Shown here one piece after another: positions 26,280 to 63,472 of a stretch of 64,000 nt of DNA (the stretch's first letter is position 1; each line of letters starts with the position of its first letter). Location: positions 37,138,001 through 37,202,000 of the forward strand of contig OX597818.1 of the NCBI GenBank assembly GCA_951406725.2, given 5' to 3'. This DNA is from Octopus vulgaris. Lineage: Eukaryota. The notes under the pieces are model-generated. The model was not told where the DNA came from, did not search any database, and worked only from the letters and a program-made list of their open reading frames with translations. Both the position numbers and the translations under genes were made by a program.

Positions 26280-27703
26280 CAACCCTTCAACACACACTTG
26301 TAAAGCCGACGATCAGATCTGGCGGAATATACCGAGAATGTCTTGAAGCTTTATTTTAGAAATATTCGTTTTGTTTTGTAAATCTAGAAACAACAATCAA
26401 AACTCGATTGAAAAATTGAGTTTAATAAAAGGAATATTAGCAATTCTTTCAAACGCCTACCATGTAAAATTCCGTCGAAATTTTTCGTTGGTTTCCGGTA
26501 TAATCCGTAAACTGAAAAAAAAAATTTTGTTTTAAAATTATTATCCGTCATTTTGTCCGATTATTGTACATAAGCTGTTTGTTAATTAATTATATTAAAA
26601 AGGGGGAGAAAAGAAGAAGAAGGAAAAAATTTTTAAATTTATTCATATTTCCCATGAGACCTGAAAGGTGTAGGTCGGAAGGCGGTGCTACTAGTTTCAT
26701 CATTAACGGTGAAGAGAAGAGACTGAGTAACAGGACAAACAACAACATTATCATCATTTGCTACCGACGTTACACTGTCGATAGCGTTACCACTTCCATC
26801 TTGTCGACTACTGCTACCACCTCTGTATAGTAAATATACGAAAAAGAAGACACAAATAAAGAAAGAAACAAAAAAAAAAGCCACCACCACCACCACTACA
26901 CAAAGCTTGGATAACTTAAAGTCTAGTCGCAATACATTTCTCTGTTACACTCGGAAGAGAAGGCGATCAGACAGACGTGTTTGTTAGGTTCTCGCCATTT
27001 TTCTCATGGAAACACATATACATATTTATTCACTCACTCACAACAACAACAACAAACAACAGCGAAGCTTCTTCTCCTAAATGTTGTTACCGTGTCGTGG
27101 AAATTGTTACTTCTCTCTTTCTCTCTATATATATCTCTGTCTCTATCTATCTCTCTCTCTCTCACGCTCTCTCTCCCCCTAAATGTGTGTGCAACTATGC
27201 ATAAAAAAAACACCCAAACTCTTTTAAGAAGAAGAAGGTTTTGTGTTTGTTTGTAAAGCTGTATTTAAAACCTTTGACTAACCACTACAGAGGCGATATA
27301 ACAAACAAAATACAAGGTACTAACATAACAGTAAGAAGACACAAAACAAGAAGGTAGGACGCGATCAACAAACAAAAAAACATCAAATTATACACAGACA
27401 TATACACACACAGACACACACACTATATATACATACATATATATATATATTTAAGCTATTACATATATTTATCTATGTAAACATGTACAGCAACACTCAC
27501 AAGTTATTAATAACCTATAAGAAATCAACTTTCGGTTTATAAACGCGCACACAAAACTGTATATGTTTTAAAACACTGTGAAGTGTTTATGAATATTAGT
27601 TACCAAAGTACTTATATGTATTAGATTATCAAGTAAATAACAACTAAAATCTGTACTACGTCAACGTACCTTCTTCACTTTAAACCTATATAAACTTTCG
27701 TAC

Positions 27704-37500: not shown

Positions 37501-38140
37501 AGGTGACACCATCATGGTGACAGTCAATCGTTCTAGCATGACACATTCTCTGTTAAATCACCATGTCGACGCTGTCACCATTCCAGCGACATGGCAATAC
37601 TTAGTCACCAACTAAGCTACATAGCAACACTCACTCACTCATCATTCCAACCACATGACAGCATACAGTTTACTGTTCCAGCCACATGGTAACACGCCGT
37701 CACCATTCCAGCCGCATGGCGACACTTAGTTACCATTCCAGACACGCACACACACACAGTCACCGTTCGAGCTACATGGAAACACTGTTCTAGCCACATG
37801 GCAACACAGTCACCAATCCGGCTACATGGTGAGACACACCATTCCAACTACATGGTAGCACAGTTACCATTCCAACCACATGGTAACACGCTGTCACCAT
37901 TCCAGCCGCATGGCGACACTTAGTTACCATTCCAGACACGCACACACACACAGAGTCACCGTTCGAGCTACATGGAAACACTGTTCTAGCCACATGGCAA
38001 CACAGTCACCAATCCGGCTACATGGTGAGAGACACACCATTCCAGCTACATGGTAGCACAGTTACCATTCCAACCACATGGCATCTCTCGGCCACATGGT
38101 AACACAGAGTCGCCATTCCAGCTACATGGCAACACAGTTC
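37500..38140. repeat. About 28-bp minisatellite (CAGTCACCATTCCAGCTACATGGCAACA) with a roughly 195-bp higher-order duplication
   Basis: Units recur throughout. 37682-37876 is repeated at 37877-38075. Confidence 0.9.
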
Positions 38141-49190: not shown

Positions 49191-50779
49191 AAGCATTGTT
49201 ATAATTAAAATCGCTCGTCTTAACAAAAGAGATAGGTATATATATATGTGTGTGTGTTTATGTGCATATAAGTATTTGTAAATACATATGTATGTGTATA
49301 TATAATGTTTACACATACGTGTATATATATAACAGTGTATAGGAGATACGTGCAATTAAGGAATATCAAATTTACCTGATGTTTAGAACAATGTGGCCGA
49401 CAATACACCTCCTGCCCAATAACACAGAGGAGTGATGGAGCATTCATAATTATGGTAACACATACGTATGTTCTATCTTGTTAACAGAAAGTTCGTTATA
49501 CACTCTGCGTGCGTATGTACGCGCGCAGCTGCTCGACTATAGGTGAAGGTCCCATCCGGTTAAATGTGTCCTTCATACATACATTCCTCTGTATTCACAG
49601 TTTATCCTACTTTCTTTTCTGCATATCAGTTTCGACCGTGTGAAATAAAGGCAAAGAGACGTTTGATTAATGTCACCGTAAAAATAATAATAATAATAAT
49701 AATAATAATGTAATGGTCAGGATGATTGAAATTCCTTTGGTATAAATAGACCTGCTCGATCAGGGCTGAACTGGGCCTAAACAACAACAACAATCTAGTC
49801 CCATACTTACTCGATGCTGTCTTGTGAGAGCACTCGTAGAAACTCTCACCTTGGTCGCCTGAACCTCATGTCCGCCGCCCTCACACAACACAAAAACGTA
49901 TAAATAATCGGCGATGCTGTGTTGGTGTTTGCTATTAAATTTTCTTTTGTTTCTTCGAGTTATTATTATTCTTTTCTTTTCAACTTAATATTTGGAATTT
50001 CCAGTGACTAGAAGAGTGGGTGTAGTAAGTAATAAACGCTGTTACTGTAACACGAGTTTGTCAATTTGACTAAAACATCTATCTCTAAATATCACCAACC
50101 CCTTAAGTGGCTGTGAATCAAATATTTTTCTACTTTGGTTTCAGAGTGTGTGCGTACTCGCACGTTCAAACACACATACACACATCTGTTACATTTTTCT
50201 CTCGGACAAGTGGAATTCTTATAATCATCTCTCTCTCTCTCTCTCTCGGTATGTGTGAAAGTAGGTATAAAAATGCGTATGTGTGTGTGTGAATCATAAA
50301 TATTTATGTATTGCAAAGATTGCGACAGATAATGTTGCTTCATTTCATTTAAAACGGCGAATGTTCCGTTGGTTTGTCGTGAAATTGTGCTGTCAGATGA
50401 TATCATGTGAAATTAGCAAGTAAACCGATAGTTTGCCTATGAAAAGAAATTACTTTGGCGTAACAGCTCTCTGTCTTTCCTTCTTTCTTTCATCTTCTCC
50501 CTCTCTCTCCATGTGACCACGCTATCTTTTTCTCTTAGCTCTACGTATAATATTTCTCTTTCTCTCGGAATCCAGTCTAACATCTGTATATATCTCTCAC
50601 TAATTAGTCGTCTTCGTTCAGCTTGACATCTCCCTACTTATTTGTCATTTTTCTTTTTTTTCGTCCTTCTTTTCTCTAGCTTTCACTTTTTTTCTTCTCT
50701 GTCGTTCGAACAACATTACTTTTTTTTTTTGTTTGTTTCTTTTGTACCTGTCCCTGCTTTTGGTTGCGCATAAAATCTC

Positions 50780-51005
50780 TTCCCGTTGAACGTATATCTT
50801 CTTTTTCAGTCAAACGTAACTTCTCCCCCAGTCAGATGTAACTTTCTCTTTCAGACGAACGTAGCTTCATGTCCAACTAGACGTAACTTCTGTACCAGTT
50901 AAAACGTATGTCTTCTGCTAGATGAGCGTATCCTTTTCTTCCAGTTAACCGTAGCTTCTCACCTAACCAGTATAGCTTCTCTTGTAAATAAGTGTAGCTT
51001 TTAGT
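50780..51005. repeat. Degenerate roughly 21-bp minisatellite (CAGTCAAACGTAACTTCTC-like)
   Basis: About 10 units containing ACGTAACTT/CGTAGCTT. Confidence 0.75.
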
Positions 51006-51227: not shown

Positions 51228-52096
51228 ATAGGATGACGTCTCGGTTTAGGGAAACCCGCCCTAATTCATGCTGACTTGTATATCAGCTCCGTATTACCAC
51301 TGCTCTTGTTTCAGGATGACCTCTACTCTGTACAAGTTCAAGTCACCTTGAACTTGTACTTCTGTTGAAGATGACTTCTTTTTCGTCCCAAATCATCTCT
51401 TGGCTCTCAGATACCTCTTTAGTTCAGAGAAGCGTCTCTTTCAGTTTTAGATGACTTCTCAGTACAGGATGACCTTTTGTTTTGACGAAGGTCTTCTCAG
51501 TTCAGAGTGACCTCTTCTCTCAGATCAGAGTGACTTCTTTCGGTTGAAGGTGACCGCCTCTCTGTTTAAAATTAGTCCTTTTTATCTTGCTTTTCGCAGT
51601 TCAAGCTGATTTCATCTTTCAGTTCGGAGTGACCTATTCTCCTCTCTGACCCCTTGAGTGGCGTCTACTTTCAGGTCAGTATGACCTCTTGCAGTTCAAG
51701 GTTTCTTGTTTCAGTTCAACTTGACTTTTCTTTCAGTTCGAGGTGACCTCTGGTTGATCTCTACTCTTGTTTCAAGCTAACCACTTATCTCGGCTCAGTT
51801 TGACCTCGCAGTTCAAGGTGACTTCCTCTGACAGATCGAAGTGACATCTTCTCACAGTTCGAAGTAATGTCTTCTCGCAGTTCGAAGTGACCTTCTCTTG
51901 ATTATAGTTGATTTCTCTGGCATCAAGTTGACCTCTTCTCATTGGGAGGGTTGACCTCTGGATGGTTTTTTTCTCTCAGTTCTGGATGACCTTTTCTCAG
52001 ACGTTACCTCGCAGTTCGTGTTGAACTCCTTTCTCAGCTCAGACTAAACCTCAAAGCTCATTCACGGTGATTTCTTTCAGTTCAGCATGACTTCTC
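51228..52096. repeat. Degenerate roughly 20-25-bp tandem array of CAGTTCAnnnTGACCTC units (IR3 palindromes)
   Basis: More than 20 units by eye; perfect AGGTCAgtaTGACCT at 51673-51687. Confidence 0.85.
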
Positions 52097-52128
52097 TTTA
52101 CGTCGACTCGATTCACCGCTTGTCACTT

Positions 52129-53679: not shown

Positions 53680-55105
53680 TACTGGTTTCAAATTTTGTGG
53701 GGAGACGTCTAGTCGATTACATTGACCCCCAGTGCCCAACTGGTACTTATTTTGTCGACTTCGTCTGAATTTAAATTCAGAATGTAAAGACGGACGAAAG
53801 ATCTTTTTTCGAAAAAAAAGAAAACGGTTAGTCTTATACGCCATCAAATATATTTGTACATGGATGTACAAAAGGATGGAGGGATGGAAGGGAGACTTGA
53901 CCTCAGTAGAATATGTTCGAACCCGGTAAATAATAGAACGTAGCTAAACACTGTATTCTACCATCCACTGATCCTTTCCCCTCTTCCAATAATGATGATA
54001 ATGTTCTTTCTTTACGACGCTGCAAGGCCACAACATTTATGGGTGAAAGAAGGTGGTCGATTTTATCGACCCTTCCCCTGTACTGCACTGATGAAATTCA
54101 AAATCGATTCTGGTATGATTTCAACTCATAATATACATGAGCCAAATTAAATATTGTAAAGCATTTCTTCAAAGTCTTTATGTTCTGAGTTCAAATCCTG
54201 CCGAGGTCAACCTTCTTTCTCTGCATCGGAGTGGGTTTAATCGACTAACCTTCCCCACTTCCAATTTTAGACCCTCTGCCTATATTAGAAACAACTATTT
54301 TGGATGGTGGATCAGCAGTGTGTAATCGAGTGTTCTCTTACCCTGCCAGTCCTTGTATCTGTTAAAACAGAGACATGAATACTGTAGCATCGTGAACTAA
54401 CAAACGACGATGAGACATGATTGTTTTTATTATTATTATTAATCATTCTAAGGCAGCGAGCTGGCAGAATCGTTAGCACGCCGGGCGAAATGCGTACCCG
54501 TATTTCGTCTGTCGTTAGGTTCTGAGTTCAAATTCCGCCGAGGTCGACTTTGCCTTTAATCCTTTCGGGTCGATAAATTAAGTACCACTTGCGTACTGAG
54601 GTCGATCTAATCGACTGGCCCCCTCCCCAAAAATTTCGGGCCTTGTGCCTAGAGTAGAAAAGATTATTATTAGTCATTTTAATTCTTTCCTTCCATTTAT
54701 AATTTTCGGCTGTTTCGAATTTTTTGAACTACATGACAATTTCTGAAATAGTATCTTGTATCAAAACTTCATTCTCTGGGTCAAGCTGACCGTTTCAAAA
54801 ATTCAGCCTTTGTCTTTTTATCCAAAACTGAGAGAAGAAACCATCCAGAGGGCAACCCTACCAATGAGAAGAGGTCAACTATTGCTGGTAACATTAGTTT
54901 CAAATTTTGGTACAAGGCCAGCAAGTTCGGGTGAGGGGGAAAGTCGATTACATTTACGCCAATAGTCCTCTAGTACTTTATTTTATCGACCCCGGGACGA
55001 TGAAAGGCAAATTCGACCTCGGCCAAATTTGAACCCGGAACGTGAAAACGAACGAAATGCCTCCAAGCATTTTGCCCGGTGTGCTAACGATCTTCAAGCT
55101 CACCT
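53680..55105. mobile_element. Cluster of SINE A copies in both orientations (53680-53810 -, 54020-54170 -, 54178-54295 +, 54451-54672 + full length, 54895-55105 -)
   Basis: Matches to family A. The 54451 copy is flanked by ATTATTATTA(A/G)TCATT duplications. Confidence 0.8.
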
Positions 55106-58214: not shown

Positions 58215-58799
58215 GTCGGGTAGGAGGCACTGCCTACTCTGCCACAACCAGACATCTCATACATATACAGACGATAGACATTTGCTCGTATGCTTATACA
58301 CACACACACACACATATATATATACAGATATACACGTGTGTGTGTGTTCTTATGAATAGTTGAAAAGGCAACCGGTTTATAATGCCCTACCCAATCAAGG
58401 TTACTTCTTTTCTTCCAGAACCAGATTATTCAATATAATGATTATACATTAGGTTACTCGAAAATAAGTTAAATCAAGTCGAATGCAAGCAGTTTATTTT
58501 CGAGGGTAAAACAAAATAATTTCAGTGCATGATATTCTTTTGTAAAGTTTCGGCATTATTTGACGTTTAATTTTTGCAAAAATCAACTTGAGTCTTTTAC
58601 ACAACCCACCTCTCTCTCTCTCTCTCTCTCTCCTCTTTCTCTCTCTCTCGCTTCCATCTTTGATGCTACCAGTTTGCCTCTCTATTCCTCTTTGTCTTTC
58701 GTGTTACGGAAGAAATAACATGCTGTGAAGAGAGCATAGAACTCTACTGACGAAATCACATTTTGTTGTTTGAAGCCGGTTTTTACTTATTTTCATTTA

Positions 58800-59757
58800 A
58801 TATTTTCTTAAATAGACTTACTCGGTTTTTGCAGAAGTTTGGCTTGACATAGAAACCGCATGTTTGAGGGTGAGAAGGCAGTAAATGTGGGAGGCAGCAG
58901 TCAGATAAATATATAAGAGAGAAGAAGGTGAGGAGTGCGATATAGCTAAGTGAAACACTGTGTTTTGTTAAATTTAGAGAGAACTGTGCAAAGAGAGAGA
59001 AGACTGTGCAGAGAGAGAGAAGGGGGGGAGCACAACTCGTGACTGGTTTCTCAGAATCTAGCACACTGTGATCAATAGGTTACATAAATTTGTATCAGTA
59101 TATAAACACAACCTTTCCTACCGGTTTATACACCTTACACATCAGCAAGAGGCACTCGCAGCTGTGTGTATGTATGTATATGTTGTGTGCTCAGTCGATT
59201 TAATTGTGGCTAAATTCTTTGAAATTTCAAATTCTCCGTCCTTCCAAAGACTGCTATTTGCGGAGGTGTTGTTGGGAGAAAATTTTAGGAATCTGATTTT
59301 GGAAAGAGAAAAGAAATGTCTCTATCGTACTTGTTGCTTTTTTTCTTTTTTCTTTATTTTTCCTTTGTGTGTTTTAACTCTAAAATTATAGTTTTTTTCT
59401 GTTTAATAAATGAAAAGATAACTTGTTAAATTTCTTTCGTTTTTTGTTTCTCCAAGGTTTTATATAGTTCGTATTTATTATAATAATGTGACTAAACTTG
59501 GCATTGGTAACTTAAATTCAAACTACCTTAATAGCTTGTAATGCTTATTCTTTACGAAAGAATTGTGTGTGTGTGTGTGTGCGTTTTTAATTCATTCGCC
59601 AATGTTGTGGTGCAGAATTATTTCCCCAAGTTGTTGACAAGCAGTCAGTCATCCGTAATGGTCTTCTTACTTTTGTGTGTTTTTGTAGAAAGTCTATCTG
59701 TGTGTGAGGTTTTCCCCCCCTCCTCGCACCGTAGTATGTCGGTAATTTGAACAGAAA
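58800..59757 (+). promoter_or_regulatory. Candidate promoter and 5' UTR upstream of the putative first coding exon
   Basis: TE-free, TATA-like ATATATAAG near 58908, GA-rich tracts, and TCAGT initiator-like motifs (for example 59191 and 59645). Confidence 0.3.
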
Positions 59758-59786
59758 ATGGCTGCTGTATCTGCTGTTGTCCGGAG
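59758..59786 (+). CDS. Candidate first coding exon (MAAVSAVVR, phase-2 donor) of an unidentified gene
   Basis: AAAATGG strong start context, open frame, and donor AG|GTACGT at 59787 followed by pyrimidine-rich intron-like sequence. Too short to identify. Confidence 0.4.
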
Positions 59787-61699
59787 GTACGTCAGCTGAT
59801 TATCCTCATCCGCCGCTTCCGCCATCGCCGCCGTTCTCTTCTTATAATAATGTGTACCATCTTGTCGCTTTCGGAATAGCAGACACTCCAACTCCTCCGA
59901 CTTCCCTCCATCATCATCTTCTTCACCCTCGCCCACCGCAATTTTCATTGCTCCTTATTTCATCTGTTTATATTATTAAGGTTTGGTTATATTTGGTAGC
60001 TTCAGTTTTTGTTATGGTTGTGCGAGAGTGGAGGGGGGAAGTTCTCTGTCTCTTTTTTTTTTTTTTTCCCTCTCTCCTTTTCACTCTGCTGCTGTTCGTT
60101 TTATTAGATACTCTCCCTACACAAACTATGCTAAAATCTTGCTCTCTCTCTCTCTCGTTGCCCCTTTCTCGTTAAGACTATTTTAATTTTTGAAACCACT
60201 TTCCTTTTTCTTTTTTAATCCATTAAGCTTAAAATAATTGTTCAGCATACCATCTTCATTAAATCCTTAATAACCTCATTTTAACTACTATCTCGACCTC
60301 TGAATTGATAGTTATCGCTATATTTATTGGATTTCCTCTTGCTATTGTAATTTCTAGACTTGGTAGAAGGTTAACTGTATTAAATATTCAGCTTTTCGTT
60401 GTTTTATTGTGGCTATCCCAATTTACTACTCGCCGATTTATCGTTCGTTATTTCAAGCCTATAATTCTGTTAAGTGCATAAAGAACTTCTTACGTACGCA
60501 ACAAGTTCAATTCGAATAAACTGAAAGTGGTTAGAAATTAGAAAAGGGCTAGTGTTGCTTGCTTGACTCTGTCACGTGTGATTTGTATACAAACTCCAGG
60601 TTAGCAACAAGCTAACTCGGCGCACTTCGCTTTTTTTTATTGGGCGAGGTTGAGGTGAGGCAGGTTGGGGGTGGTAAACCCGCTTGTTTCCACCTCTGCT
60701 AAGTTATTCTGAAAGACATTACTTTCTCGGTGGTAAAGATGCTAACTGCACTGTGACCCTTAAAAAAAATGTTATACTCTGTACGGACAAGTAAGTGTAT
60801 TTTTCCGGAAAACGTTCCAAATGACCCCCCCCCCCTTAAAACATTTCTGACTTCCTTTCCAGTACTAACGTTGAACGAAAGGAAACATTTAAATATATGC
60901 TTAATAATTTAATGTTCTGTCTCCTATATTCCGCGCTTGTTAATTAGATGGATTTCCGGTGTCGGAAGGGCGCTATTCCTGTCTGCTTTTGTTTTTATCT
61001 CCATTTTTGTGTGTTGCTGTTTTCTTTCTTTTCTACGTGTTTTATTATTATTATTATTGGTATTCTTATTATTTTATGCTGTTGTTAGTCTTCTTTACAC
61101 GCCAAACCCTCGCAACACATACATACATACATTCTTTGTTTTGTCGTGTATTATCCATAATGCTTTAATGTAAACCCCTTGTGCTTAATATAACGCTTCG
61201 TTGACTGATAGTTCGATTTTATGGACACAAAAATAATAATATACGTAACATAAATTGCAAAATTTCATGATTACTGAATAAGCATATCTTAGTTTGTTTT
61301 GTATTGTTTTTTTTTTTTCATCCTGATCTATTCCCATTGTTTTATGGTTTTCTGGAGGTGGGGGTCGGGTGGAGTCAGACGTTTCCAAAACTGAAATAAG
61401 AATGAAGTGATGAAAGTAAGTTGCTCTTTCTAAAATAGTTATACTGATGTTTTATAACGTGAAAATAGTGTAAAATTCGGTGGAGTCGGGGAGCGTTATT
61501 AAATAACTAATGTAGTAATGTGGAATACCTGCTTTTTGCACTCTTGTTCTGTTCGTGGAAGATTTGCTATTATGGTGATTTCCCCCCCTCCACTCCATCC
61601 TCTATTCTTCTCTCTCATATGTATATAAATTTAAGATGATATAAAAGCTTTCCTCTCCCCCCCTTCCTCCATCGCTTCTATCTAATACCGGTGCGAGAT

Positions 61700-61980
61700 G
61701 GCTGGAACTGTTGGAATGTGGTAGCAGCGACGGCGGCGATGCCAGCGAGATGCATGTAATACTTTTCTTTTGTAACCACTGCATAGAACAACCAATCAAT
61801 CTCAACATAGCAACAGCCGAGCAGCCAATCAGATTGGTTGCCCGTCAGCATCGCTTGGTGACATGTTGCCCGCTTCCAGCTGCTACCAACACTAGGCTTG
61901 TTGTCATAGCTGTAATAACTCTGGGTACCTGCTGTCAGCAGCTCACATGATGGAAGCTACAGCTATTATTTATCTAGTTG
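61700..61980. promoter_or_regulatory. Candidate cis-regulatory module (three CCAAT boxes, RFX-like half sites, E-boxes)
   Basis: ACCAATCA 61791, GCCAATCA about 61823, ATTGGTT about 61833, CATAGCAAC about 61807, CAGCTG and CACATG. Locally GC-rich. Confidence 0.35.
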
Positions 61981-63472
61981 GTCCTCTCTCGTTCTATCTC
62001 TCTCTCTCTCTCTCCAACTCTTCCAGAGATCCAAGGTGTATGCAAATGTATGCTAATGTAGGATATGCTATATTTCAGCAGCATATTTGATTCAATATTA
62101 GATCTTAACAGTCGACTCAATAAAACCATATATTTTTTTTTAATTTTCTTCTTTTTTTTTTCTACGAATATTTGGCAACATTTCGTTCGTGCTTTTTCAG
62201 CATTTGTCCTTGCTTTATCTCTCGCTGAATGTATTACTTACTAATCAAAGTTCTTCAGTATTCTTCAAATTTTCCAGCAGATCCGATATAACATATATAT
62301 ATATATATATATATATTCCTCATTAAGTTTCCACAACCCAGAATTTCAGTAGTATCAAAATTTCTAATTTATTTTCTGCCCCCCACCTTTTTTTTTATTA
62401 TATATATCAAGAAATGAGTAAGCTCTTGTACAAGTTTCTCTGTTCGCCTCCTGCCTTCATTTGCTGTGTTATTATACTCATACCATTTCTACCAAAATAC
62501 TTTCAATTCAAAATTTTAATTGGACCAGATTTTAGAATACTTTGTAAATTATATCTTACCATTTTTTTTTCATTAATTTTATTTATTTTTACATTTGATA
62601 TGTTAACATATCCAGAGTAAAAATTTATTGATAAATTCTAATCTGCTTAACATAAAAAGTTCGTTAATAACTGCATTTGATTGGGAGTTTTCCTTCCTTT
62701 AATTTTGACTTGAAAACTGATAGATTTAGGAAATTTTCAATCAACTAAGAATTTTCTGCATATGCTTCTCTGCACATCACCCCTTAACTTCTATCTGTTG
62801 CCCTAACTCATTTATTTTCCTTACCTCATTTCATTTATTTACCTTATTTTTATAAGGTAAAATTAGTGCTTTAACCTTTTTCTAAGTAACTGACTTTAGA
62901 ATTCACCCCATTTTACATCTACTGATGCGTATTTGTTGATTGTACAAATACTAATTTCAGCTTGGCTACTTAAAACTACTCCAAGTAATATACCAGACGT
63001 TGGGATGCATGTAGAGACGGGTTTCAAAAACAAAATTAACTTCTTTAACAGATGTTCAAAAATCCATACACCATATATATACACTGTGTGTATTTTTTAA
63101 TATTAAGTTCATTTTAAATTAAGTTTCTCGTTAGAGTGAGTCATTTAGGAATCGAGTAAAAATGTGTGTACATTATCATCACCATCATAGTCGTTTTAGT
63201 GTTCACTTGATATTATGATCATAATTGTTTCAATGTTAATTTGACCTCATTTACCAGAGTACCTAAGCATGTTACCTTTTTGGTAATTGCAGATGCTAAC
63301 AGGACTCAGGGAACTTTACTTACAATAAATCTGCAAAACGTTAAACATTATTTTTTCTTATCATATATCTCTATCAATAGTGCATTTTAAAATACTTATT
63401 GTAAATAATTGTTAATGTCAGGATTATAAATCTGGCAGGAATTTATCTGACCAGTGATATTTTATATATATC

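Follow-up and report, generated by a model that had tools for sequence, protein, structure and literature searches.

A single-copy degenerate minisatellite of imperfect IR3 palindromes upstream of DYRK1/minibrain in Octopus vulgaris, a candidate cluster of nuclear-receptor sites

Introduction

In homotypic enhancers derived from VNTRs or microsatellites, tandem duplication multiplies the site of one factor beside a gene. An array of short palindromes in the genome of Octopus vulgaris, located upstream of the gene for the dosage-sensitive brain-growth kinase DYRK1/minibrain, raises the question of whether a minisatellite has been kept here as such a cluster, with nuclear receptors as its readers, or whether it is decaying neutrally and only resembles one. 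We analyzed this array within a window of 64,000 nucleotides (contig OX597818.1 of assembly GCA_951406725.2, positions 37,138,001 to 37,202,000 of the forward strand; window coordinates are used below) and compared it with the surrounding chromosome, the complete genome, metagenomes and close relatives. No published description of the array was found in the open literature, the scope of this search leaving most subscription journals outside.

Structure and uniqueness of the array

The array is a degenerate minisatellite at 51263..52093 on the + strand. Its units share the core TYTC-AGTTCR-nnn-TGAYYT-C, which is an imperfect IR3, and are joined by pyrimidine linkers of variable length. Cyclic alignment splits 51290-52100 into ~39 units, whereas an ungapped scan with equal weight on all 20 columns recovers 28, and therefore ~11 of the ~39 units are broken by deletions or decay. 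With units that are ~74% alike, arranged head-to-tail with a period of ~23 nt (minisatellite units measuring 10-60 bp) and multiplied by local duplication, the array belongs to the minisatellites. A previous sequence-only reading of this DNA had described more than 20 IR3-like palindromes. This description is confirmed by the 28 ungapped units, and all 12 sites that it quoted are exact in letters and position. Its statement that the half-sites are always 3 nt apart goes too far in view of the broken units: when the half-sites were scanned independently, the gap was 3 nt in 20/28 pairs of first and second half-sites lying within 0-9 nt of each other. The exact 3-bp distance between inverted half-sites that defines an ERE is nevertheless the prevailing arrangement.

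Within 51228-52096, 13, 19 and 29 IR3 sites lie at <=2, <=3 and <=4 mismatches from AGGTCAnnnTGACCT, respectively, compared with means of 0.03, 0.54 and 3.18 and maxima of 1, 3 and 10 in 200 dinucleotide shuffles. At <=3 mismatches, 17 sites fall within 1 kb, while every other kb of 264 kb holds <=3, a site density far above background as in homotypic clusters. A single unit at 51673-51687, also among the quoted sites, matches the ERE consensus perfectly; it differs by one base from the usual first half-site of the array and is the only perfect ERE in the window. Orientation is nearly uniform, with 27/28 well-aligned units, as well as the broken ones, facing one way. The reverse-oriented unit at 51340-51354 is a 15-mer identical to 51810-51824 and is held in a 13-bp perfect inverted repeat (51330..51359, - strand). 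Decay in one half of a unit shows no correlation with decay in the other (rho 0.09). A coding repeat was ruled out, as the array is not covered by any ORF of 80 aa or more, and an RNA polymerase III B-box, considered by eye for its resemblance to GTTCRA, was dropped since the units lack the C with which the B-box consensus ends.

Related DNA was found close to the array. At ~50790-51005 on the + strand, ~8-10 units composed of YAG, 7 nt, TAAC/TAGC and a pyrimidine tract form a sub-array from which the IR3 palindrome is absent, and which is likely a diverged sister block of the main array. An isolated outlying unit at 50611..50630 (+ strand) fits the array profile with 15 bits. Finally, bases 51926-51987 of the array recur as an inverted 61-bp copy (92%) between SINE-like repeats at 54820..54880 on the - strand. 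This local copy is the sole other match to array DNA in the genome, which sets the array apart from dispersed repeats and transposon subterminal arrays with copies elsewhere.

The genome scan for similar IR3 arrays that the sequence-only reading had envisaged, run over 2.8 Gb with three tandem-unit patterns, yielded no second array, and a PWM trained on the array itself found no second cluster in 464 kb. The outside hits of the tandem patterns were rejected as members of the same family: those on C7 consist of two sites, a ~131-bp satellite on C8 repeats one fixed perfect ERE, and the hit on C1 is a single site. The C8 satellite (G000:C8:49570844 onward, L028) carries five identical perfect EREs and is a young homogeneous counterpart to the studied array. 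In metagenomes, the pattern scan returned 22 loci with a G+C of 0.36-0.67 and mostly one to three spacers per array; these were likewise rejected as relatives, as homology ends at the short motif. The window itself contains a second degenerate minisatellite at 37574-38130, with units of 28-30 nt, a 194-bp higher-order duplication and arms (ATGGYRAC / GTYACCAT) that form a quasi-palindrome around 3-5 nt. These arms resemble RFX half-sites, and the repeat sits ~21 kb upstream of the inferred DYRK1 start.

Divergence across the unit

Column conservation was determined from the 28-unit alignment, in which all columns carry equal weight. Across the 12 columns of the half-sites, the majority base has a frequency of 0.79, versus 0.57, 0.54 and 0.39 in the spacer (mean 0.50), and a fully unsupervised seed search shows a dip at the same spacer columns. 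The spacer is thus less constrained than the half-sites, as in an ERE, and the test that the sequence-only reading had set for itself, namely that spacers diverge faster than half-sites, came out in its favor. The five flank columns (TYTC before, C after) reach 0.78, level with the half-sites, so that the motif extends beyond the 15 bp of an ERE. This flank conservation could be explained by shared descent of the units. Like the inverted unit and the palindrome-free sub-array, the conserved flanks had escaped the sequence-only reading. The spacers are purine-biased (26/28, 24/28 and 19/28 purine per column) and comprise 15 distinct triplets in 28 units, which corrects the earlier description of them as freely varying; the count of distinct spacers is unremarkable under neutral simulation. 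The two halves tolerate different changes, most of them transitions.

We compared the half-site-minus-spacer contrast, 0.29, with simulated arrays in which a single natural unit multiplied along either a star or a tandem-duplication history. This contrast was reached in 2/1,799 simulations with HKY, CpG and indel processes and in 0/392 of the runs matched for unit number and identity. Strand-asymmetric, purine-fast simulations reached it in 9/1,800 runs (5/1,449 matched; 1/1,800 for purine columns only), and both simulation sets pooled in 11/3,599. Across 21 neutral model settings, the mean contrast ranged from -0.05 to 0.11. To treat the spacer as if chosen post hoc, we also allowed the three columns to lie anywhere, upon which 53/1,800 runs reached the contrast, with 15/200 in the worst model. 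Purine columns in half-sites stand at 0.77 versus 0.50 for the purine spacer. In four control degenerate arrays from 1.324 Mb of the same genome, a small set whose top value comes from n=12 units, the best three-column contrast was 0.05-0.225 versus 0.24-0.31 here. The control at 0.225 is a degenerate ~31-nt array with a CCAATCA core in the DYRK1 3' region (G000:C5:~37374400-37375200), ~172 kb past the window end, and its 12 units have an uneven column profile.

Genomic context and the start of DYRK1/minibrain

Mapping of its exons identified the gene downstream on the + strand as DYRK1/minibrain, with the first coding exon ~79.5 kb downstream of the array. The sequence-only reading had placed a candidate first coding exon at a distance of 7.7 kb, but of 16 proteins compared from the DYRK1 cluster, none starts with the ORF at 59759. 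The CpG observed/expected ratio is mostly 0.7-1.0 over 260 kb upstream. At ~62 kb it drops from ~0.8 to 0.2-0.5, and low values prevail from there to the end of DYRK1. Gene-body methylation is established for invertebrates and would give such a drop. From this drop we infer a DYRK1 start at ~58-62 kb, 7-10 kb from the array, with the promoter or a non-coding first exon in the region 58350..62000 (+ strand), where candidate donors occur at 58926 and 59785. The array would lie just upstream of this putative gene body, in CpG-undepleted DNA, and its link to DYRK1 is one of proximity only. Of the earlier proposal of a minisatellite-derived enhancer or receptor sponge upstream of a gene, the minisatellite and the position before the inferred start were retained, and the short distance to a coding exon was given up.

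Two further stretches deserve mention. At the CpG boundary, 61690-61950 holds CCAAT boxes (61792, 61825, 61833) together with RFX-like half-sites and appears promoter- or enhancer-like. A unique exon-like stretch at 26600-27330, with a donor-like AG|GTACT near 27316 seen by eye, is possibly an upstream promoter or non-coding exon. Over the array and the DNA around it, contigs from three runs of putative RNA and one run of unknown kind give patchy, low-depth cover, and among the 15 of 80 contig joints listed, none touches the array under this patchy cover.

Conservation among close relatives

The compared organisms are relatives diverged by <1%. One contig of organism D spans the array with one substitution, the contig cover of organism C runs from 51327 to 52125 and differs by one substitution and an extra T, and organism A has an identical array, its run possibly being the assembly's own source. 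No gain or loss of units was seen among these sampled close relatives. Altogether, the array is a single-copy, length-stable and heavily diverged minisatellite. Substitutions between organisms fall within half-sites in 0/3 cases, a number too small to inform (P=0.23). The array differs at 1/799 positions versus 20/2440 near the promoter (P=0.04, from different runs); the non-array flank is equally low (1/814), and low divergence is therefore regional and not array-specific. In organism B, the 50 letters 5' of 51639 in one contig (run X10) do not align, and a DNA run has zero cover over the array, although a gap proves nothing. These signs could reflect a structural variant of the array or an assembly effect.

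Fit to receptor sites and candidate receptors

Compared with the 15-bp ERE, one of the 28 units has no mismatch, one has a single mismatch, ten have two, five have three and 11 have more. This places 17/28 units within 3 mismatches, while 26/28 carry 2 or more and just 2/28 have half-sites with <=1 mismatch to AGGTCA over 12 bases. The usual first half-site is AGTTCR, and the second half-site reads AAGTCA in 10/28 units. The monomeric ERR site TNAAGGTCA is missing from the units by eye. AGTTCA half-sites are favoured by NR1I/NR1J-type receptors; on the half-site preference of NR1J, the accessible text of PMC4070562 and PMC12965858 holds nothing. The looser form RGKTCR-n3-YGAMCY fits 13/28 units with <=1 mismatch. 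RGKTCR serves as the half-site for RXRA/COUP-TF2, and steroid receptors share the IR3 motif (PMC10345098). In human, ER-bound sites are mostly non-consensus EREs, tandem imperfect EREs may act additively, and the ER motif stops short of the flanks (PMC2853111). Genome-wide, perfect IR3 sites number 270, and the remaining six spacings in the range 0-6 average 153. The dominant variant of the array is under-represented, with 244 occurrences versus 388 for the reversed control, and the commonest form of the array is therefore not a favoured site.

Candidate receptors are encoded in the genome, which contains first zinc fingers that are ER-like (C14) and ERR-like (C16). In molluscs, estrogen receptors show constitutive activity and no binding of estrogens (PMC3886901, PMC12965858); in the accessible portions of these two papers, no genomic target of a molluscan ER is named. 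The octopus ER was presented in the sequence-only reading as a constitutive ERE-binding activator. Constitutive activity is documented for its ligand-binding domain (PMC3886901), whereas ERE binding could be located only for a snail ER (PMC3778743). The accompanying emphasis on ER and the perfect ERE is weak in view of the 2/28 close matches, the under-represented dominant variant and the conserved flanks.

A gene-like region at G000:C6:40512961-40529348 (L105-L107) contains 13 matches to the nuclear-receptor C4 zinc-finger domain, nine in one 2,990-codon open frame and four in later exon-sized frames. The canonical P-box occurs in the last of the 13 domains only. As a reader of the array, this gene was rejected because 12/13 domains are without a canonical P-box and their spacing is irregular. 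A length-limited search returned no homologs, while 4-6 matched stretches at 32-40% identity do occur in some unnamed proteins. Neither octopus nor receptors with at least three DBDs were found in the accessible text of the 2DBD-receptor paper (PMC10497141), and the gene may be an undescribed multi-DBD receptor.

Discussion

How, then, did this array arise, and what might hold it? The reading that we prefer, at a rough probability of 0.45, is that the minisatellite has been kept as a homotypic, low-affinity cluster of nuclear-receptor dimer sites that would act on DYRK1, with the receptor no more than a candidate. Local tandem duplication of a unit with a chance imperfect IR3 would have built the array. 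A receptor dimer reading RGKTCR-type half-sites head-to-head would contact 6+6 bases and not the spacer; candidate dimers are of ER- or ERR-type, which are ligand-independent in molluscs, or of RXR/COUP-TF-type. Selection on summed occupancy would then preserve the half-sites but leave spacers free to drift and some units to die. The pitch of ~20-23 bp, about two helical turns, would put bound dimers on one face of the DNA, and the cluster might tune DYRK1/minibrain transcription from 7-10 kb upstream. Strict membership in the ERE class failed at the half-site match and at flank conservation; in function, the array may nevertheless be a cluster of imperfect IR3 elements.

The main competitor is an ordinary minisatellite decaying neutrally, whose founder unit held an IR3-like string by chance. 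Its spacer dip would stem from early subfamily structure, slippage in a 4-nt purine run or a local mutation bias outside the models. We regard this as rather unlikely, though several observations speak for it. Some 11 of the ~39 units are broken, the flanks are as conserved as the half-sites, and spacer variation is mostly A/G exchange within a purine run. The post-hoc window statistic is met in up to 7.5% of deep-tree simulations. The same motif has arisen by chance in unrelated tandem repeats (the 22 metagenome loci and the C8 satellite), another quasi-palindromic minisatellite lies at 37.6 kb in the same window, and the sister sub-array without the palindrome counts against a receptor reading. 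However, 0/21 neutral settings give a mean contrast near the observed one, the purine columns of half-sites are far better kept than the purine spacer, and the chance arrays elsewhere have one or few spacers. If the array is neutral, it is a useful example of a decaying minisatellite mimicking a response-element cluster.

Other explanations invoke a different reader or none. C2H2 fingers recognize base triplets, and the C2H2 family is greatly expanded in octopus. A homotypic cluster bound by a protein other than a receptor, for example a multi-finger C2H2 zinc-finger protein reading the whole asymmetric ~20-bp unit and skipping one triplet, would account for a constrained motif of ~17/20 columns with non-palindromic flanks and asymmetric halves, and for the orientation shared by 27/28 well-aligned units and the broken ones. 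It would, however, turn the position of the free triplet, at the exact centre of inverted nuclear-receptor-type half-sites, into a coincidence, and it has no candidate protein; we consider it improbable. We would give very little weight to an RNA-level reading, in which the + strand units, with their branch-like TGAC/TAAC, pyrimidine tract and CAG, would resemble 3' splice sites and serve as decoys or acceptors in a transcript, non-coding or of DYRK1, that starts upstream. The two best-kept columns are the T and A of TGA (27/28 each), which fits a yUnAy branch point; the sister sub-array retains YAG and T-A-A/G-C with the palindrome gone, and the units lie on the DYRK1 sense strand. Yet the AG is intact in only 18/28 units, with the downstream TTC better kept, and in 13/26 cases the distance between the branch-like A and the next AG is <=13 nt. 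The array also lies upstream of the CpG-inferred gene body, and with the decayed AG, the splice-site explanation is therefore weakened. Just as implausible, in our view, are small DNA or RNA hairpins with a hypermutable 3-nt loop, which would explain the spacer dip with no protein involved. In human tumours, short inverted repeats do mutate ~1.35-fold faster in their spacers, but this effect is restricted to 4-5-nt loops with 7-15-bp perfect arms (PMC5737083). At three pairs, the common variants would allow G-U pairing on the + strand; the arms here, however, measure 6 bp with a central mismatch in 24/28 units, DNA folding yields 0 to -0.9 kcal/mol in 26/28, and RNA folding rarely predicts the IR3 hairpin.

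Returning to the receptor-dimer cluster, a bolder form of it would see the repeat domesticated as a ~28-site landing pad for the ligand-independent octopus ER/ERR, driving or buffering DYRK1/minibrain. We hold this to be a long shot. If true, the orphan molluscan estrogen receptor would gain a direct neural target, and the array would become a candidate cis-change in cephalopod brain evolution. As a unique 830-bp element with ~28 IR3-like sites upstream of DYRK1, it offers in any case a ready-made probe for molluscan receptor targets.

Among known systems, EREs and tandem imperfect EREs share with the array the inverted 6-bp half-sites 3 bp apart, the less conserved spacer, the close imperfect copies with one perfect copy among them, and occurrence in repeats (PMC2853111). 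The array exceeds them in number, with ~28 copies within 830 bp and a pitch of ~23 bp, whereas only ~3% of human ERE-bearing bound loci hold three or more within 2 kb (PMC2853111). It also differs in its usual first half-site AGTTCR, its conserved flanks and its purine-rich spacers in place of C(A/T)G, and its receptor sites are predicted from sequence. The RGKTCR elements of RXR and COUP-TF accommodate AGTTCR, including the A/G at its last position, but are mainly direct repeats such as DR1, while IR3 is the steroid-receptor arrangement (PMC10345098). With tandem-repeat-derived homotypic enhancers, the array has in common the local duplication that multiplies a site next to a gene; VNTR enhancers, however, are polymorphic and homogeneous, whereas the array is old, length-stable in the sampled close relatives and composed of units ~74% alike. 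Finally, an ordinary decayed minisatellite would share the ~23-nt period, the pyrimidine linkers, the broken units and the single locus, but the divergence of the array is concentrated in three central columns, beyond what neutral models and the four control arrays display.
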